In this document: positions 4,041 through 57,600 of the stretch, piece after piece | Position numbering within the stretch: position 1 is the stretch's first letter | How the letters are laid out: each line of letters opens with the position of its first letter | Assembly (NCBI GenBank): GCA_036172245.1 | Contig: JAYWIR010000096.1 | Location: forward strand, 124,001 to 188,000 | Direction of reading: 5' to 3' | From: Raillietiella orientalis | Lineage: Eukaryota | DNA length: 64,000 nucleotides | Notes under the pieces: generated by a model | Databases searched by the model: none | What the model saw: the letters and a program-made list of their open reading frames with translations, nothing else | What the model was told of the DNA's origin: nothing | Translations under genes and position numbers: made by a program

Positions 4041-4062
4041 ATATCCTCCCCGAGATTATTGA

Positions 4063-7000
4063 TGTCGGGGCCGCGGCTCGGAGCGTACGGTTCGACGATC
4101 ACGGTCGTGTCGGCCAGCTGACTTTCAGGTGGTCCGACTCGATCGATCTGATCGTCACAAACGTGTACGCACCGAGCGGCGCGGATCTGATCAACAGGAG
4201 GGCGAGGAAAGAGTTTTTCCTTGCCCTCCGGCGCGACTGGCTGATCGGAGTAGGCGTGCGGAATGCCCATCTGGTTGCAGGCGCTTTTAACGTTCGCCTG
4301 AATCCAGATGGGCAGAAAAAGAAGCGTGACCTCGTCAACGAGGTGTGCATGGCAGTGCACACCTGTAATTTGTTGGTCAGTGCACTGAGGATGGAGGACA
4401 GCATTGACCACGTGTTTCTTGACGAGCACCTGTGCCCTCGCTTGGGCAGGCGCGGCAAGTTACCACCGAGCTGTCCGACCATCGCCCGCTAGTCCTTGAG
4501 ATCCATCCGCGCGACAGGGGCCCCCCCTCGTCAGCGTGGCATTTCCCAGGGGACTGGCGGAAGCTTTTGGACGTAGCGTAACATCTTCGCACGTTCATAC
4601 GGAGCTTCAGGCTGCGGACACTCCAGGATTGGGACCGCTTTAAGCGATCGGTCCAGGAGTTCTGCGACCAGTTCTTTCTGCACCACCTACCTACGGGTTT
4701 TGGGACTGGGGTCCGTAACGAACGAGCCTACCTGCAGGTCCGTCGTTACGCCAGGACCCCTGACATCCGCAGGCTGGCGGAATACAAAGCGGGAGCCGAG
4801 AGGCATGCTTGGCAGTCCGGTTCGGCCACCTTCCCTGACGATCAGGGCCAGGAGCACTCGGCACCCGCCCAAATCCGCGGCCTGCTGCGGAGTTACTACT
4901 CCTCCCTGTATGCCAGGGCACTTTCGGAGAGGAACGTCTTACGACTCCTGCTTCCGGAAGGCGCTCCAGCGATCGGGGAGGAGGAGAGAAAGACCCTCGA
5001 CGAGCCTTTCACGATGGACGAGATCCTCTCGGCCATCGGAAAGCTCAAGAAACGAAAGGCTCCAGGGGAGGAGAGTATGCCCGCGGAGTTTTATCAAACT
5101 TCCGCGGCTGAGCTTACTTCCCTGGTACAGCAACTCACCTTGCTGATACGCGAAACAGGTTACGTTCTCGCCTTGTTTCGTTCGTTAAAGGTGTGGCTTC
5201 TTCTTAAGGGAGGAGATCTGAGGAGCATGAACAACTGGCGTCCCATCACAATAGTGAATGCGGACGCCAAGTTGATAGCTAAGGTTCCGGCAGAGCGTCT
5301 AAGACATGTTGCCAACATCTTCATCAGACCGGAACAGACATATGGTGTTCCCGGGCGAAGCATAGAGGCGAACCTGTTCCACGCATCCACCTGGCTAGAG
5401 CTCCAACATGAAAGGAGCTTGGTGTGCAGCCGGAATTCCGGTGCGTGCGCCGGCAAGGGGCTGGATCTTCGGGTGGATGAGGGAGCCCTTGCGGTCGCAA
5501 TCGACTTGCGAATAGCATTCGATTGCGTCAACGAGAATCTCCTTCTGGAGCTTCTGGAACGCTTGGGCTTCCCAGCCTCATTAGTGGCCTATCTGCGCTC
5601 CTGCTGGGGCGACGCACTTATCAATGTTACTTTCAGCGGGCAGACCTTGCACGGCGTGCCGGTGCGGCGTGGGATCCGGCAGGAAGACAGCCTGAGCCCC
5701 TTGCTCTTCAGTACCTACTTTGAGTTGGTACTAAGAGCGTACAGGGGAACTCTGGCGCACCTGCCGCACGACTGTGCCGGTACGCCGGCCGTTTCAGCAT
5801 ACGCGGACGACCTTCTGCTGCTGCTCCCTATGTCCACCCCGGCTGCGGCGGTCGAGGAGTTCTTCGACCTGCTGCATCGGGGTACCGGACTTAAGGTGAA
5901 CAGGGCGAAGTCGTTCGTGATGCCAGTTTGTGCGGCGTGGGCAGGGCAGCAGGACTGGGTCCGTTTGGGGATCCCCACGGTGAGGTACTTCAAGTACCTT
6001 GGTGTGCCGTTGGGGGACTACTCCCCTGCGGAAGCGTGGTCCGGCTGCCTTCAAAAGTAGAGACGGCCATCGGCCCGTTCCGAGGCGGCAGGTTTTTCCT
6101 GCCTGAACGGGCCGCGGTTTGGAACACGTTCGCGGCTCCTCTCCTCCGCCCCCTGCTTTTTGTTTGCCTTCCCACAGAGAGGATTAAAAAGCGGACAAAG
6201 GACCTCCTCCGTATCGCCCTTTGGGGCAACGGGAGGGCCCGTGTCCGCTTAAAGGACTTGTGCGCTCCTCGTCGGGATGGTGGTCTGAGCCTCCTGACGC
6301 TGTAGCGGCTGGAGCTTCAGCTCCATTTCCGCTTGTCGGCACTCGTACCTGAGTTGTGGTGCACCTGTTGGTGCGTCCCTGCACGTCTCCTTCTCCAGCA
6401 AGCCACCGGCAAGACGGAACTGACGTCGTTTCTTGCACTCCGTCGCCGCGTCAACCCATGCGGACTCCAGCTACGGAGGGTGGCTGCGCTGTATCGGAAA
6501 ATCCCAGGAGTGCTCACCTGTCGCCCGTTTAACGGTGGTGCCTGGTTGCAGGAAACCGTTCGAATGTGGGGACAGTTCGGCATGCAACGCTCCCAACAGG
6601 AACGAAGGTTCGTGTTTGGGGGTTACAGAAGTTGCACGCTCCGCGAGATCCTGGAGGATCCAAAGAAGAGAGCGTGGGCAGGAAGAACCCCCCTCGCTGC
6701 TGCGCTGCCCTCCCTGATGAAAGATCTGGACAGCGATGTTGCGGCGAAGTGGGTGGTTACAGTAACAATCTCCGGAAAGGAGAAGAAGATAGGAGAGTGG
6801 AAGACGGTCCAGTCAACAGACGCTGCGACCCCGAGTAAGCCCCCCAATGGACTTCTGCGCTGGGGCGCGCTGCTCGATGTTCCCATTGAACATCTGAAGT
6901 GGTCCCCGGTTCTCATGAACACTTCCGCCCTCCCCTTGAAATGGCAGGAGTCGGCTCTCCTGTTGCAGCACTGGGGACTCCCCTGCAACGCCCGCCGACA

Positions 7001-7614
7001 CCACTGGACCTGGGGAGCCGTGGACCCCAATTGCGTCAGGTGTGGGGAACGGGAGTCCCTCCCCCACCTGCTAGTGGATTGTGTTGCCCTTCGGCCCCTT
7101 TAATTTCGCTTTGCCGCGGCCATCGGAATCCCCTGGGGCAACCCCAGGGACGCACTGAAAGCCCTCTTCCTTGTTGACGCCCTTCGGCCAGCGGACTCGT
7201 TAGCAGCTTTGTGCTGCCTACGCGGGATCGTCACCGCTTGGAGCAAGGCTACGGGAGGACAACGCGACCAGTCTGCCATCCAGCCAGCCTCCCATTTCCT
7301 AGGAGAGCGTCCCGATGGCCGCACCTGGATCCAGGAATACAGAAGGAACTTGCCGGCATCCTGCAAAGGATGCAACGGCCCCACCAGCAACTGTGATCCC
7401 TTCCCTTACCCTCCCAACTTTTCTTTTCCTTTTTGTTTTGTTTTTTGTTTTTCCCCCTTCCCCCTGCTGCCGTTGTGGACCGTACCGGTCTGCGAACCGG
7501 TGACCCGGCAGGCTCTGTGTTTCTTCGTGCGTGGCTGGAGCAATGGTCCAGCCACCGCACGTCTTTGTAAAAGTTTATTTTACAATAAACGCCCCGGCGA
7601 AATCCGGGTGAAAA
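4063..7614 (+). mobile_element. Family A copy A1: 5'-truncated within APE, decayed ORF2 to 7396, complete 3' end
   Basis: APE C-half, RT (RQED, YADD), CVRC..H..C motif, TGATCCCTTCCC at the stop, AATAAA 7584-7589, hairpin 7593-7608, TGAAAA tail. Confidence 0.92.
7584..7614 (+). terminator. AATAAA, CCCGG-N6-CCGGG hairpin and TGAAAA 3' terminus (representative copy)
   Basis: Same architecture at ten 3' ends. Confidence 0.7.
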
Positions 7615-7748
7615 TCGAACGCCTTGCGTTCTCTAGGGTGGATGTGTTTTCTCGGTGCTCCTCGTGCCAGGAAGTCTCCCCCAGTGCAAGCGTCGCATGG
7701 TTCGGAGGTCGATCAGGCAGCGATGCCTGACGCGACCACCAGGGATGG

Positions 7749-7830
7749 CCAGGGGGCAGCGGCAACGCCGCCCCCAGAGGCGATGGAGAGCCAGGGGGCG
7801 GCGGCAACGTCGCCCCCAGAGGCGATGGAG
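7749..7830 (+). repeat. 42-bp tandem duplication in A2 ORF1 (QGAAATPPPEAMES x2)
   Basis: Two nearly identical adjacent 42-bp units. Confidence 0.85.
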
Positions 7831-9029
7831 GTGGGGGCATCCGCCCCCACAGAATCGGTCCCCGCTGCAGCGCGGGCGTGGAGCGCCGTTGTGTCGGCGC
7901 CATCGCCTGCAGCCGCGGCGGAATTGTCGGCCTATGTAGAGGAGGGGTACAATCCCTCATTGTTCTACAAGGTAGGCAATTTATATTCTTTAGAGAGCGC
8001 GCGCGCCTTCTCGAAGGGCATGCGCGCTCTCGATGTGAAAGAGGAGGAGCTCAGCGCTATGACCATCCGAGGCGGGGGTCAGTACGTTGAGGTCATTTGA
8101 AACATGCAGAGCTGGCCCAACGACTGCTAAAAACCCCCGTTGTGATGGGGACGCGCAGGCTCCTCCCCACTACGGCGGACCGCAGCATGGTGGTCCACCT
8201 GTTAGGCGTAACCGCGCGAATGCGCAAAGAACAGGTTGGCGCCGCTCTGGAAGAGTTCGAAACGGTCCACGCGCAGTGGACGAAAGTTAGTCCTTTCGAG
8301 GACTACACGGGGCTGCAACACGGCCTCACTGCTGCGCGCGTGACCGTTCAGGAGGGCTGCACTTTTCCCCACAAACTGGTGGTCGAAGGCGAAACCGTCG
8401 ACCTCTGGTATGTGGGGAACCCGAAATACTGTGGCATCTGCAATACGTCGGGCCACCTCAAAAAGGGGTGTCCCAACGTGCAGTGCCAAGTATGCGGAAC
8501 CTTGGGACACACGAGGAAGGTGTGACCTAAAGCAGCATTGCGGGTGGTTTCCAAGAGAAACCTTAAAAAACGTGCCCGGCTTCTGCAGAAAAGACTGGCG
8601 GCGAAGGCTGCCGCGAAGGCTGTGCCACCCGCGCCCAAGGTCCAGCCCGCACCCGAGACCCCGGCGAACAACGCTGAACTAGTCGACGGAACAAGCCAGG
8701 AGCCTGGGGGGCAGGTGGTTACGGCCAAAAAATCAAAGAAGGAGAGGAGGATGGAGAAAAAGCTCGCGTACCGCCAGAAAAAACAGCAGGCAAGCGAGCA
8801 AACTAAAGAATGCAGCGTTGTCGTTTATTACCCGGTTGCGCCGGGACGTTTATCTAAATATCAACTGAGAACTGTGTTCCCAGGCAAGGGGAACAGAAAA
8901 TGGGGAGTAGATTTCCCTGAACGCAGTCCGGGCACACTGAGAGTTCGGAACGGGATTGGGTGGGACAATAAATAAACAAACTGGGTGGGTAGGCGCAGAC
9001 AGGGGTATACCGTCTAACCGTTGCTATTC

Positions 9030-12000
9030 TCAGAACCGGCGGTGAATGCCGCGGATCTCCATCCTCACTTCTGCTCCAAGATGTGGCCACCCGGTAGCCA
9101 TTTGCAGGTTGCAGGCTGCGGTGTCGGGGACCGATGTTGGGACTGCTTGCCACTGCAATACGTGACGGGCTCTGACAATGGCGCGGACGCAGCGGATGAT
9201 TGCGACGACCGCTCCAAGAGAAAGTCCGCCACGCGTGTACAAGCGGCGCATCCAATCCAGTGCGGTGTGTCCAGGGTGCAGGAGCGCAGAAGACAGCCGC
9301 TGCCACAGCTCCTGGAGGGCACCGCACTCAAACAGCATATGCGGAAGCGATTCCACCGCTCCGCATTTGGCACAGTTCGGAGACGCAACTCCCCCAGGAA
9401 TCAGGTGCGCCCGCTGGTTGCAGTACAAACCCCAATGCACCAGCAGAAAAGCGTCCTGCTTCCACCGAAGGGGGAAGAGAGTCGCGTCCAAACACGCAGA
9501 AGGGACCACAAGTTCATCGGTGGGCACCCCGAGGAGCTCACTTCACCGGAGAAGCCCCTTTGCAAGAATGCGAGGTGTGACAGCGTCTGCCACTTCGCAA
9601 GTCCTCCAGCCGCCCAGCAGTCGGGTTTCGCCTGCGATTTCGCAAGTGATCTCCCACCTCGCCGGCAGGTCACTGTCATCTTGCACCATCAGTGCACACA
9701 GTGCTTCGGCGAGTGGCGTAGCGACTAGGCGTGTCCACTGGCCCTGGTCTTCCAGCACCTCCCCCACTGGACAGTATGGGGAAACTTTCACGCAGCAGAG
9801 TTCCAAACGGGACACATCCTGTTGCGCTGCCCAGGACGATAAGGCTTTTTGCCTCCAGGCGTTGAAGTTCGTCGGCCGGCAGGAGATCCACTCATGCATT
9901 CCCAGAAGCGTGGCGAGCTGCTTCAAAGGGAAGCCGAATCCTCTCTGGGCGCGCTCCGTGCGCAGATGCAGCGAACGTAGTCCGTCGCCACCCGTGCTGC
10001 GCCGCAGCAGCAGCCGCGCTGGAGCACACCAGGGAGTAGTCCAGAGCTGCGCACAAAGTGCCAGCATGCGGAACTGCACTAGCAGTCCGATCCGCTCCAG
10101 CGTCAGGATGCCCAATCCTGCATCCCGCCGAGAAGCCGCCAAGTCCTTCAGGCGTATCCTGGACCTCGCCGGTCCCCAGAGGGCGTTACGCAACAGGCGT
10201 TGCGCCCGGCGCTTAGCCGAGTAGGGAGGGGGACAAACAAAAAAGAGGGGACGGAGGAGGGGGGCAACGAAAATGTTCCACACGAAGGCCCGTTCCGACA
10301 GGAGAATCCTGCGGCCTTGGTACGGGCCCAGAGCAGTTTCGGCCTTGTGAAGGCAGTCCGACCACGCTTCTGCTGGAGAGAAGGCGCCCAAGGGAACGCC
10401 GAGGTACTTCAAGCACCTGCTCGTGGGGATCTTCAGGCGGATCCAGTCGCACTGCCCCTTCCACGTAGAGCCAACCGGTAGAACGGTTGATTTCGTCCTG
10501 TTCACGCTCAGGCCCGCTCCCCGACGAATGAGCTCGAAGAAGTCCTCGAGCCTGGACGCCGGGGTGGACATGGGCAGCAGCAGGAGAAGGTCGTGAGCAT
10601 AGGCGTCCACGGCCGGGATTCCCGGGCAGGAGCTCGGCAGGTTGGCCAGCGTCAGCCTGTACGCCCTCAGCACCAACTCAAAGAAGATGCTGAAGAGCAG
10701 GGGGCTTAAGCCGTCTCCCTGCCTGATACCCCGCCGTATGGGAACACCGTACACGTGACGCCCGCTGAAAGAGATGCAGCATAACGCGTAACGCCAGCAG
10801 GAGCGCAAGTAGGCGAAGAGGTGCGTCGGGAGGCCTAGGCGTTTTAGAAGCTCCAGGAGGAGGTCCTGGTTTACGCTGTTGAACGCTTTGCAGAGATCGA
10901 CGGCGACCGCTAAGGCTCCCGGCATTCCATCGTGCCTTGAACACGGATGCTCTCCTTTGGCAGCAGCGATTTCGGCTGCCTGGCTCTGCTGCGGCACGCG
11001 CTGCTGCAACTCGATATATGTTCGCGCGAAGAAGAGATTCGCGTCCATGGACCGCCCCGGAACAGCATACGTCTGCTCCGGACTTACCAAGGACTCTGCG
11101 ATTCTCCCCAGGCGCGCGACCCATAGCCTGGAGAACAACTGGACGGCCGAATTCACCAATGTGATGGGACGTTAGTTGCTGAGGTGGCGCAAATCACCGC
11201 CTTTCGTCAGGAGACGCACCTTTGCTGAGCGGAAAGAAGCGGGAACATCTCCCGTCTCACGCATCAGCGAGAAAAGGCTTAGCACCAGAGGGACGAGCTC
11301 CGCCGCGAAGCACTGGAAGAACTCCGCGGGCAGGGCATCCTCCTTAGGCGCCTAACGCCTCTTCAGGCTTGCTATGGCAGAAGACACTTCTTCCGCCATG
11401 AATGGTCAATCCAATTTGCCGCGTTCCTCCTCGTCGATAGCAGGGTTGCTCGTCTGAAGAAGCAGCTCGGAGAGACTGCGTTCCGTAAGCTCCTACGCGT
11501 ACAACGAGGAGTAGTAGCGCTTGACTACGCGGTGTACTTTGGCTGCAGCCGAGCATTCCTGGCCAGCGTCATCGAGCAGACAGGCCGCTCCAGACTGCCA
11601 AACCTGGCACTCGGCCCTGGACTTGTACTCCGCAAGGTACCGGACGTCCGGGCATCGAAAGAATTGGCGGGCCTGCAGAAACTCTCTGCTGTTGGCCACG
11701 CCTTCCCCGAAGCCACGGGGAAGCATGTGCAAGAAGAACCGGCAGCAGAACTCGCGGTCCGATCTTTTCAGATCGTCCCAGTCCTCGAGTTCACAGATGG
11801 CGAAGCCCCGGAGGTGTTGGCGGAGATGCTCCGCCGCCTCCGAATTGCTAGGCCAGTCGGCCGGCAACCTCCAGACATTCATCGGAGGCCCTTTGCCAGG
11901 CGGTTGGAGCTCGAACTCCAGTCTAGGATGATCCGAAATCGCGGACAGCAAACGCCCTCTTTGACCTACTCGTGAGAGCAGGTGTTCATCGAGGAACGCA

Positions 12001-12593
12001 TGGTCCGACGATCTCTCCATCCCGGGCTCACAAGCAAGCAAGTTTTGCACGCGCACGGACGCGCATACCTCGCTCACCAGTTGCTTCTCCCTCAAGCGGC
12101 ATCTCTCCTCTGTTAGCAGGTGGACGTTGAAGTCTCCTGCAAGGAGGTGCGCCACGTTAGGGCCGAAGTCAGGGAGCCAGCGGCTGCGCAGGCCACCCAG
12201 GAATGCAAGTCGATGGGCGTAATGCCGGGCGCCGCTCGGCGCGTAGATGTTCGTAACGACCAGGTCGATCGATTCGGACCACTTGAGGACAAGTTGGCCC
12301 ACACGACCTTCCTCGTCGAAACAAACGTTCCGCATCGCCTCCGCAACCCTGCCTCGGACGAGGAACGCGACTTCGCACGTGTGCGCGGAGCCTTGCCGCC
12401 AGTGTAGCGTCCCGCCCGCGCGCTCTTCCAGATCCGATGCCTGCCGTACGGAGATGCTATGTATCTCCTGCAGCAGCATTAAATCGAACGTGCGCAAAGC
12501 GTTGGCTGCCGTCCGTTTTTTGTCAGCATCACGTAGTTCGTTGACATTCCAACAGGCCACGCTGACGCAACGAGCGGATGCGAGTCCACGCAT
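9030..12593 (-). pseudogene. B1 ORF2 (APE-RT-CCHC), disrupted
   Basis: APE motifs, DLCKAFN, RQGDGLSP, YAHD in place of YADD, CAKCGAVESLPHMLFEC; several stops. Confidence 0.92.
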
Positions 12594-14559
12594 CACTGCT
12601 GCGGACACGACGGCGTGCTCCTCGCCCCGTCGGGCGAGAAGTCAGCTGGTAGGAGAGCGGATTGGGAAGCGGAATTGCTCCCGTTCGCCGTTACATCGCG
12701 CCCAGCTGAGTCCTGGGAGCCGAGGATCATCGCCTCGGTCTCCGTGCAGGAGCCGGAACCGCCTCCGGCAACAGGCTCGTGCTTTCGCACTTTAGCCAGG
12801 CGCGCTACCGGCTTACCCCGGGATGCGCGCTCCATTTGGTTGCACTCGGACTCCACCTCGGACTCCGAGTGCCTGGCGCGAGACTGGCGTTTTGCCAGTC
12901 TCTTTCTGTTTCGGCAGGTGGAGGCTTGCCCTGCCCGCGCGGGGGTCATCGCAGTCGCCAACGCAGCTTCCGGAGCTTTGGCTTCCGCAGCCGCCCTCTT
13001 GCGCGAAGCGACAGAGACAGAGCACACAGCGGTAGTGCGTACCTGGGTACGCACCTTTTTCGGGGAGCTTCTCTTTTGCCTCTCACCTACCTTAAGGATG
13101 GGGAATATTGAAGGGTCAACCTTCTTCTTCCCCTTTGTGGGCGTCCTGGAGACTCGAGTCCAGCGCGCGTCGGGGACACCCTCCTGGGAGGCCGACGCCT
13201 CCCTCAATTGTTTAGCCGGAGATACCGGCTCACGTTTCGCGCTCGCGGCGGGAGACGGCTCCGTCCCCGTTACGCACTGCACCTGCTTCTTAGCCGATGC
13301 GAGCGAAACGGCGGTGATTGCCGTCGTCCCGCGAGGCGCTATTGCAGCCTTCGCTGCTCGTGCCTTCGGCGTGGAAGACGTGATCTCCACCGCCGTAGGA
13401 GGAGACTGCCGTTCAGAGGTAGCTCCGAGGGTTCCCGCGCACGGTTTCCCGTATGCTCCGCTGGACGCGCAAGCGGACGCGGACGGTTCAGCAGCCTTGA
13501 TTGAGTGCGTGCCCGCACTCTTAGGCTGCTTCGAAGGGGACCATTTGCCCCCAGGGCGACGTGGCATCTTTCCCGTCTTGGCGGTTGTCTGCGATGGTGG
13601 CTTTCCTGAAGCAACCGCGCCTTTTTTCGCGGGACCGGCACTCGAAGATGCCCCGCCCTTGGAGCCCGATTTCTCCCGTGGCACAACGGGGGATCTTTTC
13701 GGCGCGTACGGGGTTGATTGTTGGCGGCTGATCGCCTGCCACTTTCTCTTCAGCTCGGCGCACTCTTTGATGGAGTGGCCGAGCTGTTTACAATAGCAGC
13801 AGTTGCGTAAAGGGCACGTCCACGGACGGTGGCCCTCGGCACCGCAAATGCCGCAAGCCAGTCGCTGACCGGCAAATTTAAGGTGGACGATCGCATCGCC
13901 CACCTGCAAGTGCGGAGGCATTTGCCTCCTATCCGCCATGGTGACACGCGCCATGGCAAGTTCGCTGTGGAGAGATGCAGTCCTTTTGATCGGATTATCT
14001 GCTCTCCTCAGCGCGTGCACCGTGGCGAATGCACTTAGTGCAGCGACGAGCACGCGATCAAGCGTGTCCACCTGGACGGCGGATAATCGAACCACGAACG
14101 ACTGGTCCATGGCCAACAGACGACCTCCTTCCCGCGGATATTTAGCAGGGTGCAAAGAAGGCGCTGGACTAGGGATGCCTCTTTGCAGTGCACATCCCAG
14201 TGTCCGAGCGCGTTAACCGGCATGACGGGCAGGAGGTCGTCCTGTCGGACCCCGACGCGCAAAAGCTCGTCCCACAAATTTTCTCGGACCCCGTCGGAGA
14301 TCGCAGCACTCACCGGATAGCATAGCGCAGGCTTGTAGCCATGGGCTGCATATGCCTGATGCCCCGCTTCGTCGGGCGGTGCTCCGCTGGCTGCCGCCGC
14401 CTTGACGACGGAAACGAAGCTTCTCGTCGGTGGCGAGACACAAGAATCAGAGGCAGACCGGACATCTGGAGTAAAGTCTCCACTGCAAGTGGCGGCTTCC
14501 ACATCCATGTTTTGCTGCAGGGGCTCCGTGAACATCCCAGTGGACGCACTCGGGCACAT
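12593..14559 (-). pseudogene. B1 ORF1 (two CCHC knuckles, long K/A/S/P-rich tail), frameshifted
   Basis: CGICGAEGHRPWTC, CCYCKQLGHSIKEC; ends PQQ-TGA overlapping the ORF2 ATG. Confidence 0.88.
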
Positions 14560-15188
14560 CACACACAAGAAGACGGAAAGGAATCACGCTCGAGGAGCAA
14601 CACAGAACACGTCCGTGCACTGTTGTCGTCGAGTGTATTCCCGACCGCTGCGAAAAAGAACTCGCCGCTACCGACGACCACCGCTCTGCTGAGTGTCAAC
14701 AGCGAGGGGAGCGAGCCGGCAGCAGTGTCCGTCATCGACACCACCATCGATGACGTAGCCTTCGCGCGAGCCGCGGAGGAGCTGGCAGCCTCGTTACAGC
14801 CAGAACCCTCCAAGGCTGGCAAGAAGGCCGTAAGGCGTCCGGCCTCCCCTCAGGAGTCCCCTACTGCCGATCCCGAAGTGGAGGCCGGAAGCGCAGCCTC
14901 TGTTTCCACGGCACCGCACAAGAAGGCTGGACGTAAGTCCACAATGCCAAGGAAGCTCGTCTCCCCCGTCGTAGGGGAAGAGATGGCTTCCGCAAGCGAG
15001 GGTGCCATGAGCGTGGGAAACTCTCGGGACCCGTCGACCCAGAGACTCCGACGCGGGGACACTGAGGGGATGGAGGGGGTGGAGGCCGAACTGGTGCCTC
15101 AGGTGCCTGAGAAGGCCGAAACCCCCATGAACATCCCGCCCGCCTCGCAAGAGGAGGGCTCCCCCACACCTTAATCTTCTTAGCAGTA

Positions 15189-18100
15189 ATGCCGGAAATC
15201 TCCCGCCGTCGTCTGCGCATCGCCGTTTGGAACGTGAACGGGATGACAGACGCCGGGAGGAGACGAGACATGGTCGCCCTTCTGGAGTCCTACCAACTTG
15301 CGCTGCTGCAGGAGATCCACCTGATCTCTGCAGAACAAGCGCGAGAGATCGAACGGATCTCCGAAATGCGGCTATGGTACAGGTGTGGGAGAGCGAAAAG
15401 TTGCGGTGTCGCCTACCTGCTCCGGCCAGCCGTCGAGACCGCGGCACGGAACATGCGGTTCGACGATCACCGTCGTTTCGGCCAGCTGACTCTCAGGTGG
15501 TCGGACTCGATCGATCTAATCGTGACGAACGTGTACGCACCGAGCGGCGCGGACCTGATGAACAAAAGGGCGATGAAAGAGTTTTTCCTTGCTTTCCGGC
15601 GAGACTGGCTGACCGAAGGAGGCGTGCGGAATGCCCATCTGGCTGAAGGCCGTTTCAACATTCGCCTGAAATCAGATGGGCAGAATCCCGAGCGTGACCT
15701 GGTCAACGAGGTGTGCAAGGCGGTGCACACCTGCAATTTGTTGGCCAGTGCGCCGGGGATGGGAGACTGCATCGACCACGTGTTTCTTGACGAGCATTTG
15801 TGCCCTCGCGTGGGCAGGCGCGGCAGGTTACCGTGCGAGCTGTCCGACCATCGCACGCTAGTCCTCCAGATTTATCCGCGCGACAAAAGCCCCCCCTCGT
15901 CAGCGTGGCGTCTCCCAAGGGACTGGCTGAAGCTCCCGGTCTCGGCACAACATCTCCGCACGTTCATACAGAGCTTAATGCTTCGGACACTTCAGGATTG
16001 GGAACGCTTCAAGCGGTCGTTCCACGAGTTCTGCGAGCAGTTCCCTCTGCACCGCCTACCTACGGGTTTTGGGACCGGGGTCCGTAACGAACGAGCCTAC
16101 CTGCAGGGTTGTTGTTACGCCAGGACCCCCGACATCCGCAGGCTGGCGGAATACAAAGCGGGAGTGAAAAGGCAAGCCTGGCAGTCCGGATCGGCCAGCT
16201 TACTGGACGATCAGGGCCAGGAGCACTCGGCACCTGCCAAAATCCGCGGCCTGCTGCGGTGTTACTACTCCTCCCTGTATGCCAGGGCACCTACGGAGAG
16301 GAACGTCTAACGAATTCTGCTTACGGGAGGCGCTCCAGCAATCGAGTAGGAGCAGAGAAAGACCCTCGACGAGCCTTTCAAGATGGACAAGATCCTCTCA
16401 GCCATCAGAAAGCTCAAGGAGCGAAACTCTCCAGGGGAGGACGGCTTGCCCGCGGAGTTTTATCAAACTTTCGCGGCTGAGCTTACCCCCCTGGTTTAGC
16501 AACTCACCTTGCTGATACGCGAAACAGGTGACGTTCCCGCCTCGTTTCGTTCTGCAAAGGTGCGGCTCCTCCCTAAGGGAGAAGATCTGAAGAGCATGAA
16601 CAACTGGCGTCCCATCACAATAGTGAATGCGGACTCCAAGTTGCTGGCTAAGGTTTGGGCAGAGCGTCTGGGACGGGTTGCCAACATGTTCATCAGCCCG
16701 GAACAGACATATGCTGTTCCTGGGCGAAGCATGGAGGCGAATCTGTTTCACGCTTCCACCTGGCTAGAGCTCCAACATGAAAGGAGCTTGGTGCGCAGCC
16801 GGAATTCCGGTGCGTGAGCCAGCGAGGAATTGGATGGTCGGGTGGGCAAGGCAGCCTTAGCGTTCGCAATCGACTTGCGGAAAGCATTCGATTGCATACA
16901 CCAGAATCTCCTTCTGGAGCTTCTGGAACGCTTGGGCTTCCCGGCCTCATTAGTGGCCTATCTGCGCTCCTGCTGGCGCAACGCGCTTATCAATGTTACT
17001 TTCAGCGGGTAGACCGTGCACGGCGTGCCGGTGCGGCGTGGGATCCGGCAGGGAGACAGCCTGAGCCCCTTGCTCTTCAGTACCTACTTTGAGTTGGTAC
17101 TGAGAGCGTACAGGGGAACTCTGGCGCACCTGCCGCACGACTGTGCCGGTACGCCGGCCGTTTCAGCCTTGCGGACGACCTTCTGCTGCTGCTCCCTATG
17201 TCCACCCTTGCAGCGGCGGTCGAGGAGTTCTTCGACCTGCTGCATCAAGGAACCGGAGTTACGGTGCATAGGGCGAAGTCGTCCGTTATGGCAGTTGGTG
17301 CGCCTTCGGCAGGGCAGCAGGACTGGGTCGGTTTGGGGATCCCCACGGTGAGGTACTTCAGATACCTTAGTGTGCCGTTGGGGGACTACTCCCCTGCGGA
17401 AGCGTGGTCCGGCTGCCTTCAAAAAGTAGAGACGGCGATCGGCCATCTCCGAGGCGCAGGTTTTCCTTGCCTGAACAAGCCGCGCTTTGGAACACGTTCG
17501 CGGCTCCTCTCCTCCGCCCCCTGCTTTTTGTTTGCCCCCCCACAGAGAGAATTAAAAAGCGGACAAAGGACCTCCTCCGTATCGCCCTTTGGGGCAACGG
17601 GAGGGCCCGAGTCCGCTTAAGGGACTTGTGCGCTCCTCGTCGGGATGGTGGTCTGGACCTCCTGACTCTGGAGCATCTGGAGCTTCAGCTCCAGTTCCGA
17701 TTGTCGGCATTCGTTCCAGGGCTGTTGTGCACCTGTTGGTGCGTACCTGCACGTTTCCTTCTCCAGCAAGTTACCGGCAAGACGGTACTGACGTCATTTC
17801 TTGCACTCCGTCGCCGCGTCAACCGATGCGGACTCCAGCTACGGAGAATGGCTGCGCTGTATCGCAAAAACCCATGATTTCTCACCTGTCGCCCTTTGAA
17901 CGGTAGTGCCTAATCGGAGGAAACCGTTTGAACCTGGGGACAGTTCGGCATGCAACGCTCCCAACAGGAACGAAGGTTCCTGTTTGGGGGTTACAGAAGT
18001 TGCACGCTCCGCGAGATCCTGGAGGATCCAAAGAAGAGAGAGTGGGCAGGAAAAACCTCCTCGCTGCTGCGCTGCTCTCCCTGATGGAAGATCTGGACAG

Positions 18101-18764
18101 CGATGTTGCGGCGAAGTGGGTGGTTACAGTAACAATCTCTGGAAAGGAGAAGAAGATAGGAGACTGGAAGACGGGCCAGTTAACAGATGCTGCGTCCCCG
18201 AGTACGCCTCCCAATGGACTTCTGCGCTGGGGCGCGCTGCTCGATGTTCCCATTGAACATCTGAAGTGGCCCCCGGTGCTCATGAACACTTCCGCCCTTC
18301 CCTCAAAATGGCAGGAGTCGGCTCTCCTGTTGCAGCACTGGGGACTCCCCTGCAACGCCCGCCGACACCACTTTACCTGGAGAGCGGTGGACCCCAATTG
18401 CGTCAAGTGTGGGGAACGGGATTCCCTCCCCCACCTGCTAGTGGATTGTGTTGCCCTTCGGCCCCTTTGGTTTCGCATTGCCGCGGCCATCCTAATCCCC
18501 TGCGGCAACCCCAGGGACGCAATGAAAGTCCTCTTCGTTGCCGACGCCCTTCGGCCAGCGGCCTCGTTAGCATCTTTGTGCTGCCTACGCGGGATCGTCA
18601 CCGCTTGGAGCAAGGCTACGGGAGGACAACGCGACCAGGGTGCCATCCAGCCAGCCTCCCAGTTCCTGAGGAGGGCGTTTCGATGGACCCAACTGGATCG
18701 AGGAATACAGAAGGAGCTTGCCGGCATCCTGCAAAGGATGCAACGGCCCTACCAGCAACTGTGA
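15189..18764 (+). pseudogene. A2 ORF2 (APE-RT-CCHC), multiple stops and frameshifts
   Basis: WNVNG, LQEIH, NVYAP, IDH, SDH, WRPITI, DLRKAFD, RQGDSLSP, CVKCGERDSLPHLLVDC. Confidence 0.92.
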
Positions 18765-18983
18765 TCCTCTCCCTTACCCTCCCAACTTTTCTTTTTTCTT
18801 TTGTTTTTTTTTTTTGTTTTTCTTCCTTCCCCCTGCTGCCGTGGTGGACCGTACCGGTCTGCGAACCGGTGACCCGGCAGGCTCTGTGTTTCTTCGTGCG
18901 TTGCAGGTGCAATGGTCCAGCCACCGCACGTCTTTGTAAAATTTTATTTTACAATAAACGCTTCGGCGAAATCCGGATGAAAA

Positions 18984-21900
18984 TCGAACGCCTTGTGGAG
19001 ATCGCCTGCGATCGCTAGGGCTTTCTTTCCCGCTCCGAGGTCCCTTCCTAGTCCGGCTGGCGGCCTCAATGTTGGGTTCCAGATTTTCCGTTTCCCTTTC
19101 TTCTTTCTTCTCTGCAGGTGCATCCATGTGCTTGCGAATAACAGGTTGGCATCCATACTTCGCCCGGGAACAGCATAAGTCTGCTCCGGGCTAATTATGG
19201 ACTCTGCCACCTGTCCCAGAGGCAAAGCCCATAGCCCTGCCAGCAACTTGGCGTCCGTATTCACAATTGTGATGGGACGCCAGTTGTTCAATTTACTGAG
19301 GTCTACCCCTTTCGGAAGGAGCCTCACTCTGTCTGACCGAAACAAGGCGGGAACATCGCCTTCGTCTCGGAGCAGCCTTGTCAACTAAAGCACCAGGGGT
19401 GCCAACTCTGCTGCGAAGCACTGGAAGAACTCCGCTAGCAAGCCTTCCTCCCCTGGCTCTTTACGTCTCTTGAGCCTTTTAATCCCGGCGAGAATTTCGC
19501 CGGTCGTAAAAGGCTCGTCGAGGCTTTCCTTCTCCTCCTCCCGTTTTGCCGGGGCTCCCTCCGGGAACAAACCACTGGGAACGTCCCGCTCCGGGAAGGA
19601 CTTCGCGTAAAGGGAGGAATAAAAACACCGCACGAGGTGCCGTATTCGAGCCGGGGCCGAGTGCTCCTGGCCCTCGTCCAGCAGGCTAGCAGACCCGGAT
19701 TGCCAGGCTTGACGTTCCGCCCCGGCTCGATACTCCACCAGGCGACGGATATTAAGGGTCCTCGCTTAACGACGAACGTACAAATACGCGCGTTCGTTAC
19801 GGACCCCTTCCCCAAATCCGGGGGCAGGCGATGCAAGGGGAACTCCTCGCAGAATTCCCTGACCAAGGCCTTAAAGAGGTCCCAATCAGCGGGATTCTGG
19901 AGGGTGACGCGTCTCAGGAATTCGCAAAGGTGTTCCTTCGCATCTGAGAGGCGCGTCCAGTCCCCAGGCAACCGCCACACCCTGGACTGGGGTCCCTTGT
20001 CGCGCGGGCACTCCTCGAATATCTATCTGGAATGGTCAGACAGTTCCGACGCAACTTTCCCCCGTTTGCCGACCCGCGAGCACAGGTCGACGTCCAGCAA
20101 GAGGTGGTCGATGCTGCTGACCATTTCCGGGAGTTCCCCTAACAAGTTGCACGTGCGCATTGCAGCCCACAACTCGTTAGCCGTCCGTTCCTGTGTGCGT
20201 AACTCACCTGATAGCAGGCGGAGATTGAAGTCTCCCGCTATCAGGTGAGCCACGCGAACGTTCGCTTCCACCAGCGAGTCGTGCTTCAGGCTTTCCAGGA
20301 ACGCCGCGCGTTCCCGGTACCTGTTATAACCGCTCGGGGCGTATACCTTTGTTACGACGAGGTCGATCGTGTCGGACCATCTGAGAATCAGCTGGCCGAC
20401 ACGACCGGCTTCGTCGAAGCGCACGCCCTTCACGGCAGCGTCGACCGCCGGCTTCATGAAAAACTTGACGCCGCAGGTGAATCGGGTGCCGCATTGCCAC
20501 ACCAGCCGCCCCCTGCGATCCTCTCGATCTCCTGGGCGTCCTCCCCGGTGATCACGTGGATCTCCTGCAGGCGTGCCAGGTCGAAGTCACGCAGGGTGGC
20601 TGCCGTGTCCCGTCTGTTGCTGTCGTCGCGCAGCCCGTGGACGTTCAAACATGCCACACGCAATCGACGGCGACAGGCGAGCCCAGGTGTTATTCCCGGG
20701 TAAGTGGCAATGGGGCTCCCGCCACCTGGTCGGGCGGGACGGATGGAGGCATAGGGGAACCGCCCAGCGGTTCTCCCACCTCCATGGGGGCAAATTCCTC
20801 GGCGGACCGGAACGATTGAAGGGAGCATGCTTCACGCACCTGCTTCCCCTCTTCCATGGGGGCCGATTCCTCGGCTGCGTTGGACGGCAGGGGGGAGCGG
20901 TTCTCAGCTGTCTTCTCTCCCTCTTCCATGACCATCTCCTCCGCAGGCTCCACCGGTGGAAGGGTGAGGCAATGCCCTACTTGCTCCCCTTCCTCCATGG
21001 GGGTGGCCGGCTGCTCGGTGGCGGAGGGTGGGAAAATTCCTCCCTCTGTTCCCACGCTGCCGGCTTCCCCCTCGGCTGCCGGTGCGTCCCCCTTGCTCTT
21101 TGTCGGGATGCGCCTCTTGGGATTCTTGGACTTCCGTCCAGTCTTCTTCGGAGGCGCCTCCGTGGAGGAGGACGAACTTCCGGCGTCCGTGTCGTGGTCA
21201 CCTGTCGGAGATGCCCTGGTCGCGGCCGGCCTTCGCAAGGCCTTGCGCGCGCCGTTCTCACGGTCGGCGAGTTTGGCCGCGAGCTCTTCCGCCGCCTGCT
21301 GGAAGGCGGCCTCGTCGATCGCGGCGAGCGCGTCGCGCGGTTCCCCCTCTGTTCGCACAGAGGGGAAGCCTTCCGTGATCGCGTTATCGTCGGCGTCGAC
21401 TCAGGGGATATCTCCCCCGGTGGCGGTCTCGGGTACCTCCACACGCTCCAAAGCGACCGAACATTCGCGGTTCAACGCGCGGCGTTGTCTCCTATTTAAA
21501 AGAGACGTCGCGGGTTCCGCTGTCGACCCTTCGGTTTTCTTAATTTTCTTGGCTTGAGGCTTCGCCTTCTGCCATCCTTCGCTCTTTTCAGCGTCGTCGG
21601 TAGATTCCACGATCGGCGTTTGCTGCACGGGCTTGGGCTCCGGCTGTGGGTTCCGCCTCACGGGTGCCTTCGCAAACTTTTCCGTAGCGCCCGCGCGTTT
21701 CCCTTTGGCCTTTTTCAAGGCAGCGGGAGTGGGGGGTTCGCGCTTCGGGCACACTTTGCGGAGGTGGCCCTTCTCTACACAGTAAAAACACTGGATGTGA
21801 GGGCACCGCTTTTTCAGGTGCCCTGTGGCATCACAGTGTCCACAGTACTTGGGCTTGCCCACGTACCAGACGTCGACTGTCTCGTTGCCGACGTCTAGTT

Positions 21901-22500: not shown

Positions 22501-22795
22501 CACCAGTTTGTGGATAAGGGTAGAGCTCTCTTGAACGGTTACACGGGCAGCCGTGAGGCCGCACTGAACTGTGGTATAGTCCTCGAAAGGACTAGGCTTG
22601 GTCCATACTCCATGGACCGTGCTTTCTTTTGCCAACGCGGCGCGTAACTGTTCTTTCCGCATCCGCGCGGTTACTCCTAAAAGGTGGATCACCATACTGT
22701 GGTCCGCCGTAACGGGAAGGAGCCTGCGTGTGCTTATTATTACGGGGGTTTTAAGGAGACGTTCGGCCAGATCTGCATGTTTGCAGATCACAGCT
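22500..22795 (-). mobile_element. A-type ORF1 fragment fused to E0
   Basis: KHADLAERLLKTPV...AARVTVQE matches A2 ORF1 8097-8380. Confidence 0.75.
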
Positions 22796-30020: not shown

Positions 30021-30147
30021 ATGAGGTCATCGCCCCCGGATCCCCACCGGTGGTGATATCAGGCATTGCTGCCTAATCCTCCACCCACACCACGCACAAG
30101 CGCCAACGGAAATGAAACTCAGGAGCAAGGAAAAGACACGTCCGCTC
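30021..30147 (-). mobile_element. Family H 5' end remnant (5' UTR plus MPDITT)
   Basis: Closely matches 61299-61425; begins GAGCGGACGTG. Confidence 0.85.
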
Positions 30148-52138: not shown

Positions 52139-54587
52139 TGTGGAGAGAGGACGTGCTTTTCCTGCGCTCCGCATGCGTAGCAAAGCGAGTGTTTTTTTTT
52201 TCTTGAGTGATTTGTGCGTGCACATCCTCGGTGTCCGATGGCAGCGTTGCCAGAAGACACCGCGATGGAAGTAGGCGTGATGGAGGCTTGTTCGTACCCA
52301 CAGCCTACTGGAGCAGGGTCATCCGCCCCGGAATCGTCCCCGGCGACGCCGAGGTCATGGAGCGCCATGATGGCCGCGCCTAGCGTGGAAGCCATGGCCG
52401 AGATGGAAGCCTAGAAGAAAGCGGGGTATAAACCCTCGCTAGTCTACAAGGTAGGCAACCTTTTCCATAGGCGAACTGCACGCGCCTTTACGAAGGCGCT
52501 GCAGAACGCCAATATCTTCGAAAAAGATCTGGACGGCCTCTGCGTCCTCAGCGGCGGGCAGCGAATCGAGGTGGTATGCAAGGATATAACCTTGGCCCGA
52601 CACCTGATCACCGACCCGCTGATCGTTGATGCTCGGAAGATCTTGCCGGTGACGATGGAACGCTCGGTGGTGGTCCATCTCACTGGGATCTCCAGTCGAA
52701 TGACTAGGTCAGCGGTTCGAGAACAGCTACAAAAGCACGCAGAAGTGCACGCGTTGTGGCCGGAGTCCACGATTTTCCAAGGCTACAATAGCCTTTTCAA
52801 ATGTCAAGCTGCGGCGCGTATCACCGTAAAAGAGGGTGGTTCGCTTCCCCACAAGCTGGAAGTCTGCCAAGAAGCGGTGGACCTCTGGTACGTGGGGAAA
52901 CGCCAATTTTGTGGCTACTGCAATGCAGTAGGGCATCTACGAAAAAGGTGCCCGAACATTGTGTGCCACCTATGCGGCGGAAAGGGTCACGTTCGGCGCG
53001 TGTGCCCCAAGCGCATCACCCCGGTGCCCCCTGCCGCCAAAAAGGCGCAGGGCAAACGTGGAAAGCTGGTAGAAAGACCAGCTCGCGAAAATGGCCGTTT
53101 CCAACTGCCAGCCTCCCTTCCTCCCGTACAGACGTCGGGAGAAAGAGCTCCCGTGAACGCGGAAATTGAGGAGGGTTGGCAGCTGGTTCAGGCCAGAAAA
53201 AAAAAAAAAAAGAAATTAATGCCACAAGAAAACTCCGAGAAGAAAACTGCCGGCAACAAGAAAAAAGCCGCGCCGCTTTCAAGAAAAAAAAAACAACTTC
53301 GCGAATGCTCGGTGGCACTGGAAAGCTTAGCCGTTCATGCCGAGTCCGCCCGCGGCAATGTTCGCGGAACAGCTGATGCGGACGCGATGAATACTCGCGT
53401 GGACGAGCCCATTCTACGTTTAGAGGGTGAGACGCGAGACTCGCGCGCCGACAGCCAGGACGCCGCGCTCGATAAAGTCGCGTAGGAGCCCGCGGCAACG
53501 TTCGCCGTCAGCGATGACTCCGCGCTCGATAAGGTCGCGGAACAGCCCGCGGCACCGGTCCCCGCTGGGGAAGACGAGGCCTTCTAGAATGCGGCAAAGG
53601 AGCACGTAGCAACGCTCGCCGAGCGCGAAAACCAGCCGCGCAAGGGCGTACGCAGGTCGGCTCCGACGAAGAAGGCCCCCGCAGGTGAGTGCGAGCTGGG
53701 GGCCGGAAGCGGATCCTCCTCCTCGGAGGCACCCCACAGGAAGTCGGGACGCAAGTCCGAAAAACCCAGGAGGCGCCTGCCCTCCACCAGCGAGGAGGAG
53801 AAGCCGGAAGGAAGCGGCAGCGTGGGAATCCCGGTGGAGGAATACCCACGCCCGGAAGCCGTCGAGTCGGCCACCCCCATGGAGGAGGATGAGCATAGGG
53901 GTGAAGTCCTCCCTGCAGTCGCGAAACCTGAGCAGCCCGAACCCATGGAGGAAGGCGAACAGGTAGGCGCGGCTCCACCTGCGGGTGATCCGGCCGCCGC
54001 TCCGGCAGCGATGGAGGAGTAGGAACAGGTGCCTTCAGTACCTGTCCTCCCTCCCCCTTCACCTAGCGTCCCGCCCACGCAGGTGGCGGACGCCGCATCG
54101 CCGTTTTCCCAGGACTAACACCTGGGCTCGCCAGTCGCCGTCGGATTCGCGCCGCCTGTTGGAATGTTAACGGGCTGCGCGACGACGGCAACAGGCGACA
54201 TACGGCCGACACCCTGCGTGAGCTCGACCTAGCGCTGCTGCAGGAGATCCACGTGATCACCGCGGCAGACGCCCAGGAGATCGAGACGATCGCGGGGGGT
54301 CGGTTGTATTGGCGATGCGGCCACCGCAACACCTGCGGGGTCGCGTTCTTCGTGAAGCCGGCCATCGGCGCTGCCGTAAAGGGCGTGCGCTTTGATGACG
54401 ACGGTCCGATCGGTGAGCTGATTCTCAGCTGGTCCGATTCGATCGACCTAATCGTCACAAACGTGTATCGCCCCAGCGGCAAACAGTGGTACCGCGACCG
54501 CACCAGGCTGCTGGAAACCCTGAAACGCGACTGGATGGCGGATACCAATTTGTGAAAGGTTCACATGATAGCGGGAGATTTCAATCG
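52139..54587 (+). mobile_element. Family E copy E2: 5' end, ORF1 52238-54118, APE up to GDFN
   Basis: GAGGACGTG 5' motif; CGYCNAVGHLRKRC, CHLCGGKGHVRRVC; TAACA junction. Confidence 0.88.
53458..53630 (+). repeat. Three degenerate ~57-bp units (D.ALDKVA.EPAA) in E2 ORF1
   Basis: GAC(G/T)CCGCGCTCGATAA(A/G)GTCGCG occurs twice; the third unit is the DEAF..AA motif. Confidence 0.65.
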
Positions 54588-54604
54588 AGTGCGGACGTGT
54601 TTTA
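54588..54604 (+). promoter_or_regulatory. Conserved 5'-terminal (C)GGACGTG motif, DPE-like internal promoter candidate (representative copy)
   Basis: Present with variants at all nine recognisable A-H 5' ends. Confidence 0.55.
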
Positions 54605-57600
54605 GTTCGCTCTCGTCTCCGTGCATTCATCCGCTTCATTTTGGCGTGGTAGATTTTGACGACGATGTCGACCCAACCCAGAGCTACTGAAGTTGGAGGA
54701 ACAGCATCCGGAACTGCAATCGCGGAACCGACGGCAGCCTCCACTTCGTCTTTCTCGCCAATGGAGAAAAGTTTTGCTGACGTTGCTGCCACAGCAGCCG
54801 TCAATGAGAAACCACTCGATGAGTCGGAGTTGGGGGCATACGGAGCCCAAGGCTATAGACCTGCTCTCCGATATAAGGTAAGTGGCTTTCTTTCTGCGCG
54901 CGAGGGGAATCAGTTCAACGATGAACTGACCCGTGTTGGCGTATGGGAGGAGGACCTTCTCGCCATTATGCCCGTAAAAGACATGGGCTATTTCAAGGTG
55001 CGTTGCAAAGACGCTGCACTTGTGCAACGCTTGCTGCGCACCCCGTTGTCGATCCGTGGCCAAAAGGTCTTCCCGGCCGCCATGGACGACTCATTTGTGG
55101 TGGAGATTTTCGACATCGAGTCGGAAATCCCCGATACTGATATTCGGAACGCGTTGGCGAAATTCGCCACGGTCCATGCGCTGTGGAGGGTGGGTAGCAA
55201 CCTCAAGGACTTCTCGTCCATACACAGCGGAGTCGCTAGAGTCCGGCTTACAATGCCGGACCGCCGTCTGCTGCCCACCAAACTACAGGTGAAAGACACG
55301 GTCGTTCACCTGTGGTTCGTAGGCAAAGTAAGAACGTGCGAGCAATGCGGGAAGGAGGGGCATTGTTTGGATAAATGCCCCTCGGAAAAATGCCGTTATT
55401 GCAAACTATCCGGGCACCACTTGAAAAATTGCCCGGATCTTTTGCGAAAAAAGGCAGCCGCGGAGCTCCATCTTAGAAAACAAAGCGCGGATCAAAAGAA
55501 AAATTCAGCGAAAAACCTGGAGACCCCACGGCAGAAATTCCGAAAAAACGCGAGGCGGAATGTCGCCCCAAAGCAGCAGGAAACCTCGCACGCCCCTCTC
55601 GCGGCAGCTGAGCCGCAAAAGAAAGGGTGCGGAAAATCCGGGGCAATGGTAAGTCCCCCTAGGCGCAATAGCTGTCCTTCCCAAGCACGCCCGGCTCTTT
55701 CGGAGTTCGAGCAACCGGCGGGGACGTCAATGGACAACGGCGGTAAGGACACTTCCAGTACCGTCAGATCGAATCCTTCACCTCCTGCAGTGGCTGAGAA
55801 GCCCAAATCGGGTAAGAAGGGTTGTGCCGTGTAGACTTCGAAAGTCGGCAAAAAAAAATCCGCGTCGCGATTTAACACCCCGAAAGCGGAAAAAAATCTC
55901 ACGTTGTCGCGTTTGGAGAGCAAGCTCTCGACTAACGCGGATGCCATGCCAACGAAGGGATTAAATGCGCTTCCGAAGGCAGCGTCCATGACGAGCGTGT
56001 CGAAGCCATCGAAAGTGCTTCCGTCCAAAGACGCGGATGGCTTCAAAGATGGCAATGGAGCACAATCTCCATTTACGGCGCCACGCGAAGTGAGGAACCG
56101 TAATGAAGTAAAGAAGACTTCAGCAAAGGTCCCTCGTGCAACTGCGCGTGGGCACGCTGAAAACGCGTGCGCCGCGAAAGCAGCAGTCACCAAAAGCGAT
56201 GCTCTGGTGACGGAAAACGAAAACAGGACAGCTGTCAATCCAGCAGAACCTGTCACTACTTCGCGGAAGCCCGAAACCCGATCGAACATGCGCTAATCGG
56301 ACTCCGAAATGGATGCCGTTCCGATCACCGAGACAAGGACAACTCTTTCGAAAGCGGGTGCGCGCCGATCAAAAGTAGGCAGCCAGGCAACGCCAGCCGC
56401 GAAGCCACGCGAAGTCTTCACGAAATCCGACAAGGTTAAGCCTGGCGTGGAGAAATTACATGCATGCAGCACGACGGAGGACGGTGGCGACCGTCCCTTC
56501 CAGCCAGTCGTGCTGCTCGCCGGATAAAGCGAGCAACAATCCGCCACCTTCCCAGCAGTAATGCGGGGAATCGCGTCTTCTCGTCGTCTGTCCGTAACGT
56601 GTTCCAACGTGAACGGACTACAGAACGACGAGAAGAGGCGATTAGTAACCAATGCCCTGCGATCCTTCGACCTCGCGCTCCTGCAGGAGATTCACGTAAT
56701 CTCCGACGAGCAGGCAACCGAAATCGAGGAGCGCGCAGGCGGAACGCTACATTGGCGGTGCGGCGGCGCACACACGTGCGGCGTCACGTTCCTCGTAAGA
56801 GGAAAAATGGCGGAAGCGGTGCGTAGTGTTCGTATTGATGACGACGGACGGATAGGCCAGCTTGTCATCAAGTGGTCCGTGTCCGTCGATCTCGTCGTTA
56901 CGAACGTCTACGCGCTGAGAGGCTCTCGCTACCTCGAAGAAAGAGTAGCTTTCTTTGGAGAGGTGCAGAGCCACTGGCTCAACAACTCCAGCTTCCGACT
57001 GGCGCAACTCGTCGCTGGGCACTTCAACGTCCGCCTGCTCTCAGACGATTGGAGCCGCCCGAGGGAGCGCGCGCTGACCATCGAGATGTGCGCTTCCGGG
57101 CACGCCGCCAACTTGATGGTCAGCAAACCTGGAATGGAAAGATCGCTCGATCACGTTTTCCTCGATGAAAACCTGTATTTGCGTGTGGGTAGGAGAGGAA
57201 GATTGTTGACTAAGCTTTCTGACCACCTCAGGTTGGAGTTTGAGATCCTTTCGCCAGGCAAGGGGCCTCCGTTGCAAAGCTGGAGGATGCAGGCGGATTC
57301 GCTTAGCCAACCTGAGGCTGCGGAACATCTACGTGGATACCTCCGAGGCTTTGCCATACAAGAACTTGCGGACTGGGACAATCTCAAAAGATCTGTCCGC
57401 GAGTTTCGCTGCCAATTCTCCTTGCACCGGCTTCCACGCGGTTTCAGAGAGGGTGTGGCCAACAGTAGAGACTTTCTGCAGGCCCGCACGTTTTCAAGAC
57501 GCGCCGATGTCGGGCGTCTCGCAGAGTACAAGGCGAGGGCCGAGCGCCAGGTCTGGCAGTCCGGAGCAGCATGCCTGTTGGACGACAGGGGCCGGGAATG

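Follow-up and report, generated by a model that had tools for sequence, protein, structure and literature searches.

A LINE Family That Probably Inserts Antisense at One Base in the Catalytic Reverse Transcriptase Motif of Sibling LINEs

Results

A family of long interspersed nuclear elements (LINEs), here called A, was analyzed in a 64,000-nucleotide stretch of Raillietiella orientalis DNA (assembly GCA_036172245.1, contig JAYWIR010000096.1, positions 124,001 to 188,000 of the forward strand; hereafter the window). Judging by its junctions, A is probably a target-specific LINE of the apurinic/apyrimidinic endonuclease (APE) type that enters sibling LINEs by target-primed insertion. Its three 3′ ends in the window, at 7614 (+), 18983 (+) and 58279 (-), are all followed by TCGAACGCCTTG(C/T)G, for which the chance expectation is 0. 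The flank is the reverse complement of the (H/R)-K-A-F-D codons of the catalytic reverse transcriptase (RT) motif, and it is in frame with ...ALAIAGDLHKAFD at 19003-18983 (-) and with ...ALAVAVDLHKAFD at 58259-58279 (+). The orientation is fixed, all three junctions being antisense to the KAFD codons, and 3 of 3 copies end at the same base of the repeated target. A preliminary description, made from the letters of this DNA, had proposed the common flank, its identity with (H/R)KAFD and the antisense insertion of A into DLxKAFD. The three ends were found where it had placed them by a pattern search with shuffled controls, the reverse complement was confirmed and is in frame at two sites, and the antisense insertion is seen directly twice, the two host families being 59% identical to each other. 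The copies and hosts at these junctions are listed below (ORF, open reading frame; UTR, untranslated region).

4064..7614, (+): family A copy A1; ORF2 from about residue 83 to 1017 and 3′ UTR, ending in the hairpin and TGAAAA
7615..7628, (+): remnant of 14 bases, TCGAACGCCTTGCG, between the 3′ end of A1 and the 5′ end of A2
7629..8824, (+): left part of A2; 5′ end, 5′ UTR and start of ORF1 (CCHC), up to element Ca
14616..18983, (+): right part of A2; remaining ORF1, ORF2 (APE, RT, C-terminal zinc region) and 3′ UTR, ending in GGATGAAAA
18984..22782, (-): host E0a; 5′ part of a LINE with ORF1, APE and RT to KAFD (ORF2 residues 3-573), cut by A
18984..19004, (-): target in E0a; last 21 host bases, GATCTCCACAAGGCGTTCGA(T), coding for DLHKAFD and identical to the target in E0b
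54586..58278, (+): host E0b; 5′ UTR, ORF1 and ORF2, cut by A3
58279..61301, (-): A3, a chimeric copy whose 3′ end adjoins the KAFD of E0b

When up to 2 mismatches were allowed, GGRTGAAAATCGAACGCCTTG matched the window three times, at 7606-7626 (+), 18975-18995 (+) and 58287-58267 (-), and 0 times in 100 shuffles, and a search of the window with TCGAACGCCTTGYG returned the same three sites and no others. The bare 12-mer, with at most 1 mismatch, was present at four sites, which are the three A ends and an intact RT motif at 50026-50037 (one mismatch). Wherever the 12-mer occurs exactly in the window, it adjoins an A 3′ end. The position of the A 3′ terminus is set by a hairpin module common to 10/10 element 3′ ends.

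Both hosts are cut precisely after DLHKAFD. The ORF2 of E0b is open for 573 codons to KAFD, where A3 breaks in, and the sequences upstream of the flanks at 18984 and 58278 correspond to ORF2 residues 294-573 (E 2e-74) and 1-573, respectively. The final T at 18983 could be either a host base or a base of A. E0a and E0b are only 58.8% identical (1003/1706 bases; 60.4% over the last 300), against 92.5-93.8% among the three A copies over their last 1000 bases. The INDEPENDENCE of the hits as separate insertions follows because the hosts are far more diverged than the A inserts, and a duplicated composite would have diverged equally. Judged from these identities, the E0a and E0b junctions are independent hits and not one copied junction. 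Against the 60% background, E0a and E0b do not differ at all in their last 21 bases, GATCTCCACAAGGCGTTCGAT. By our own estimate, this would happen by chance about 1 time in 100 at the roughly 80% per-base identity of a conserved motif, and it is a hint that some 20 bases of the primer side play a part.

The third site is of a different kind. The flank at 7615-7628 has only the 12-14 motif bases, and it is followed, instead of RT sequence, by the 5′ end of a different + strand element. The preliminary description had named E0 and C2 as hosts; the E0 hosts stood, and the sequence at 7615 proved to be no 'C2' host but a 14-base remnant between tandem A copies. These two copies, A1 and A2, are 90.4% identical over 3547 aligned bases. 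A2 is a single full-length element split by Ca, as assembled from the common 5′ terminal motif, the ORF1 translation and the homology of its left part to the 5′ region of A4, a related element. The flanks of A2, TCGAACGCCTTGCG to the left and TCGAACGCCTTGTG to the right, are equal at 13 of 14 bases (7615-7628 versus 18984-18997) and differ by a single CG/TG change. The remnant is thus best read, from this match, as the left copy of a 14-base target-site duplication of A2. The order that we infer is that A1 entered the E0a site first and A2 reused the same nick, so that one base would have been hit three times, across two hosts. The duplication is visible on both sides for A2 only (13/14), the 5′ junctions of A1 and A3 being without host sequence. 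On the left, A1 is joined directly, at ORF2 residue 83, to an AT-richer element at 3000-4063 (+) that carries an ORF1 with an RRM-like region (RNA recognition motif) and three CCHC knuckles.

The window holds further copies of the RT motif, all of them intact.

16872..16892, (+): the intact motif of A2 itself, GACTTGCGGAAAGCATTCGAT (DLRKAFD)
5503, 36368 and 50018, (+), and 271, 10898, 25305 and 60392, (-): starts of the other intact motifs

These eight copies, which represent at least five families, all depart from the target sequence, at 1-4 of 12 and 3-8 of 21 bases. Among the ten motif copies of the window, occupancy follows the exact 12-mer: both copies that have it are occupied (2/2), and none of those that lack it (0/8), a split with a chance of 1 in 45 by our own count. 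The motifs of A itself, CGGAAAGCATTCGAT at 16878 and CGAAAAGCATTCGAT at 36374, had been given in the preliminary description as the same two variants with the positions in the opposite order. They differ from the target at 3-4 of 12 and 7-8 of 21 bases, the most of all copies. The proposal made there, that A avoids itself through codon choice, is not shown by these copies, since the intact copies of every family differ too and A is not special. The motif sequences are consistent with target specificity and are not specifically informative on self-immunity. Element F (30828-30837) lacks ORF2 residues from about 492 to 676, the KAFD target region included, as judged from tblastn segments only.

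The ends of the elements are shared across families. All ten element 3′ ends (8 families) carry a terminal module that consists of AATAAACG, a 5-bp hairpin (CCCGG...CCGGG) and T-N-A-N-AA, for example in the last 40 bases of three elements:

7575-7614: 3′ module
38456-38495: 3′ module
8825-8864, (-): 3′ module

The ten ends terminate 5-7 bases past the hairpin, those of family A 6 bases past it, and a poly(A) tail is absent from all of them. A conserved 3′ stem-loop without poly(A), as in LINEs of the stringent type, was found at 10/10 3′ ends, and the module looks like a stringent-type 3′ recognition signal, as predicted from its sequence. Among five predicted hairpin pairs, one has changes on both sides and the others stay paired through G-U. 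Full-length 5′ ends carry a common motif, CGGACGTGTTTT. With the 3′ module and the 5′ motif, element ends could be placed to within one or two bases.

Family C provided a second case, in which the host is seen on both sides of one insert, Ca.

8825..14615, (-): Ca, a complete 5.8-kb family C element, antisense in ORF1 of A2 (...ECSVVV)
61302..62081, (+): H3, the 5′ end and ORF1 of an A-like element, cut by Cb at the same ORF1 site (TCCVVVY)
62082..64000, (-): Cb, a second family C copy about 95% identical to Ca, continuing to the end of the window

Ca is flanked by a 14-base duplication (8811-8824 and 14616-14629, with flanks TGCAGCGTTGTCGT and TGCACTGTTGTCGT). The C site in ORF1 (8811-8824, 14616-14629 and 62068-62081) is hit antisense at E/T-C-S/C-V-V-V in two A-like hosts, whose targets are identical at 12/14 bases. 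Ca and Cb are about 95% identical and their hosts just 50-68% identical at the shared ORF1 position. The two targets differ at 2 of 14 bases, with a contiguous identity of only 5 bases at the nick. As far as these junctions tell, family C is the same biology as A, seen cleanly.

Other lineages were found antisense within siblings as well. For A4, which is 73% identical to A, the host is C-like, is visible on both sides and is entered in the APE-RT linker; 9 target bases are deleted, and an inverted host copy of 18 bases stands at the 5′ junction. F is antisense at ...ECSAPADV of the C-like host of A4, Z lies antisense within the zinc region of Y, and P is antisense near residue 444 of Q. In all, the host strand could be read at eight 3′ junctions, and at 8/8 of them the insert runs antisense to the coding sequence of its host; these junctions represent six distinct family-site pairs.

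8825, 18983, 23636, 32675, 38495, 46435, 58279 and 62082: antisense 3′ junctions

This bias could be mechanistic (nicking of the non-template strand), or it could reflect survivorship, same-orientation nested homologues being lost by recombination. Four pairs among the ten 3′ ends use a common site; by our own estimate, about 0.004 pairs of this kind would be expected if insertion into elements some 6 kb long were random, on either strand. In a post hoc count, CG occurs in the last 3 primer-strand bases at 5 of 7 distinct sites (the six and that of G), against a CG frequency of 0.081, which is only a hint that the nick is preferred there. Short inverted copies of adjacent sequence are present at two 5′ junctions, a perfect one of 18 bases at that of A4 (32880-32935) and one of about 9 bases at E0a/Y (22760-22795); they suggest fold-back priming during 5′ joining. 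The 3′ end of G (52124) is followed by about 16 bases, CGCCGAATCCCGGCTG (52125-52140), and then by the full-length 5′ end of M, a tandem built like A1-A2. In sequence, the spacer is similar to the ...PGFG codons of the APE-RT linker read antisense (compare 61214, - strand).

An apparent hot spot in APE was not counted as site-specific. Three + strand APE copies break after GDFN (29067-29084, 48034-48051 and 54571-54588). Past the break, + strand sequence goes on, two of them leading into the 5′ end of an E0-type element and the other into RT residue 782. N/G′ and M/E0b are alike on both sides of the break and may be one copied ancestral composite, and the K1/K2 break looks like a microhomology deletion.

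The entire 64 kb consists of nested APE-type LINEs of several families that are 50-70% identical to one another. A composite ORF2 reference of 1017 residues and one ORF1 were mapped back on the window and revealed about 25 LINE fragments on both strands. The localized cluster of nested copies, as in Zepp and ZeppL, extends across the whole window, along which the GC content is 45-62%. The long ORFs match RVT_1 and Exo_endo_phos in Pfam, and zf-RVT and zf-CCHC gave only weak matches. For family A, Exo_endo_phos was found with E 1.3e-07 (15189-16310) and RVT_1 with E 4.9e-19 (5014-6060), zf-RVT remaining below the cut-off. Its ORF2 has both the APE endonuclease and the reverse transcriptase, as target-specific APE-type LINEs do.

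The nearest database proteins include one match of 57% identity, the remainder being LINE-like and 20-30% identical. An exact scan with the family A 3′ UTR found 0 matches in metagenome_contigs and 0 in genome_contigs. Sequencing run X1 contained 7% of the sampled words; it gave short contigs from a relative, 90-99% alike, that are uninformative on the junction. A protein-pattern scan of metagenome_contigs gave 556 matching stretches, 122 of them encoding a relative, and the best 80 loci were all 20-42% identical, none usable.

Other features of the window include an AT-rich island at 41200-46000 (GC 0.45-0.47) with decayed LINE ORF1 and RT fragments in AT-rich codons, which may be an older copy or a copy mutated by C-to-T changes. 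GC-rich tandem repeats lie at 2883-3094 (27/48-base unit, in a region antisense to the ORF1 of C′) and at 7748-7830 (42-base unit, twice, at the N-terminus of the A2 ORF1).

Discussion

The identity of the three junctions, the two unrelated hosts, the orientation, the terminus and the 13/14 repeat around A2 are observed; the order of events, target priming and the ORF2 protein as reader are what we infer. In the proposed pathway, the A machinery would nick the sense strand of the RT motif A coding sequence in other families at 5′-GATCTCCACAAGGCGTTCGA/T-3′, after ...GGCGTTCGA, the slash marking the nick. The nicked 3′ end would then prime reverse transcription of the A RNA, starting 6 bases past the terminal hairpin. 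The new A copy would be antisense to the host, whose RT would be split directly after DLHKAFD. A nick of the second strand 12-14 bases upstream would produce the duplication TCGAACGCCTTG(Y)G. The duplicated side would retain the recognized sequence, leaving the nick re-usable and giving rise to the tandem of A1, 14 bases and A2.

Several observations weigh against this pathway. It is based on three events only, in a single 64-kb window. The downstream half of the host, with the RT sequence after KAFD, adjoins no A 5′ end, and an empty A site was not reconstructed. To the left of A1 lies the + strand CCHC ORF1 of another element, to the left of A2 lies A1, and the 5′ side of A3 adjoins the 5′ end of H3. 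A3 is moreover a chimera, with a 3′ half about 94% identical to A1 and a 5′ half about 89% identical to F, and the A3/H3 junction recurs, inverted, at the F locus (30017-30247, 88% identity; A3 was compared with 30017-30752). The chimera and the recurring junction indicate a cluster reshaped by recombination, perhaps 5′ inversion, and recombination can move junctions. The G motif at 50026-50037, one base off the 12-mer, is unoccupied, which is uninformative either way. Head-to-head 5′ ends were rejected as proof of antisense nesting, since 5′ inversion (twin priming) gives an equal picture.

How the target is read is less settled than where it lies, and the ORF2 protein is only slightly favored over RNA pairing as its reader. 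The C targets, with 5 contiguous shared bases and 2 of 14 differing, fit a protein reader of a degenerate motif better than RNA pairing. An internal RNA guide was considered and rejected: in the last 900 bases of 10 elements, the best scores for an element's own flank were 9-11 of 14, versus 9-12 for the flanks of others.

A homology-guided insertion is possible, if rather unlikely. The flank carried by read-through A transcripts would pair with the nicked sense strand and fix both the site and the start of reverse transcription, the site being inherited from the parent copy; in a DNA variant, ectopic gene conversion would spread the junction. In R1 and R2, initiation is more precise when the RNA template carries target sequence from downstream. 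The primer side alone suffices, A2 having re-entered a site whose far side was already A1, and both hosts share 21 identical bases beside the junction. Each lineage has its own site within the repeats, and close relatives use different ones, A4 (73% identical to A) being in the APE-RT linker. The 3′ ends, without poly(A), must derive from longer transcripts, and read-through is plausible. However, C targets that are 12/14 alike, with 5 contiguous bases at the nick and hosts 50-68% identical, leave little for pairing alone, and no guide-like flank match was found in the last 900 bases of any of the 10 elements. The gene conversion variant leaves the tandem of A1, 14 bases and A2 unexplained.

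More doubtful is a broader proposal, in which each lineage would own a fixed nick site in its siblings (RT motif A for A, the 'CSVV' of ORF1 for C, the antisense 'PGFG' for G and M), primed by the host sense strand and inherited via the read-through flank, which would make it a re-programmable RNA-guided insertion. Alternatively, at the same low probability, A would engage in interference competition at the catalytic motif of its rivals, its own synonymous codons escaping.

We consider it very improbable that a single ancestral junction of A in its host was copied by segmental duplication or recombination, in which case the three junctions would not be independent. Copying of junctions does occur in the cluster, as the A3/H3 junction at 30017-30247 (88%) and the A-like/F-like chimera A3 indicate, but hosts 59% identical beside inserts 92.5-94% identical largely refute it here. 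Host similarity falls off no more than about 25 bases past the junction (A2 and A3 cease to align at 19021/58241), and A1 and A2 stand in tandem with a 14-base spacer and a complete A2 5′ end. It is just as improbable that the 12-14 bases are a 3′ extension of A itself that resembles antisense KAFD and came to adjoin the hosts by microhomology joining or chance: the shared flank at 7615-7628 is indeed followed by non-RT sequence, as if traveling with A, but A would be the sole exception among ten ends of 8 families that stop 5-7 bases past the hairpin, the flank at two sites leads, in frame and without a break, into 280-573 residues of host ORF2, and the hosts agree over 21 bases, beyond the 12-14.

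If A is indeed a target-specific LINE of its siblings, a target of fixed base and fixed strand in a conserved coding motif would be a concrete mechanism for the growth and localization of the cluster. One retrotransposon family would then disable the reverse transcriptase of others, and a compact APE-type system with a target of about 20 bases would be a candidate for programmable insertion. In the literature, no report was found of a LINE aimed antisense at the catalytic RT motif of its siblings, the original descriptions of Zepp lying outside that coverage.

R1 and TRAS/SART are, with Tx1, the named target-specific APE-type LINEs (R1 and Tx1 clades). R2 uses one fixed site in 28S rDNA, its 3′ RNA structure sets the start of reverse transcription, and its endonuclease is restriction-like. 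Whereas R2 hits a host gene with that endonuclease, the elements of the window have an APE domain and hit other LINEs. Target-specific APE LINEs with multicopy targets, transposons among them, are known (PMC4640811). As portrayed in the excerpts at hand, those of the R1 and Tx1 clades have, like A, APE and RT, one fixed base, one orientation and a multicopy target. A is unlike them in its antisense target, the catalytic RT motif coding sequence of sibling LINEs, and the likeness described is one of features.

Zepp and ZeppL of green algae are L1-type LINEs that form nested clusters, their insertion reportedly targeting existing copies and producing tandem arrays of 3′ ends (PMC8226300, PMC3446292). 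In the passages available they resemble the window as nested clusters of high-GC elements, again a likeness of features. The same passages (PMC8226300, PMC3446292) mention no fixed base, motif or antisense rule, and the original Zepp descriptions may say more. Nested LINE clusters have been proposed, in the excerpts, as the centromeric sequence in several green algae, and further study of such regions has been called for. Cnl1 of Cryptococcus, in the portion of the source available, prefers to insert in its own copies in tandem orientation and forms nested subtelomeric arrays (PMC9942834). As described there, Cnl1 goes into itself in tandem, whereas A goes antisense into other families, at a coding motif.

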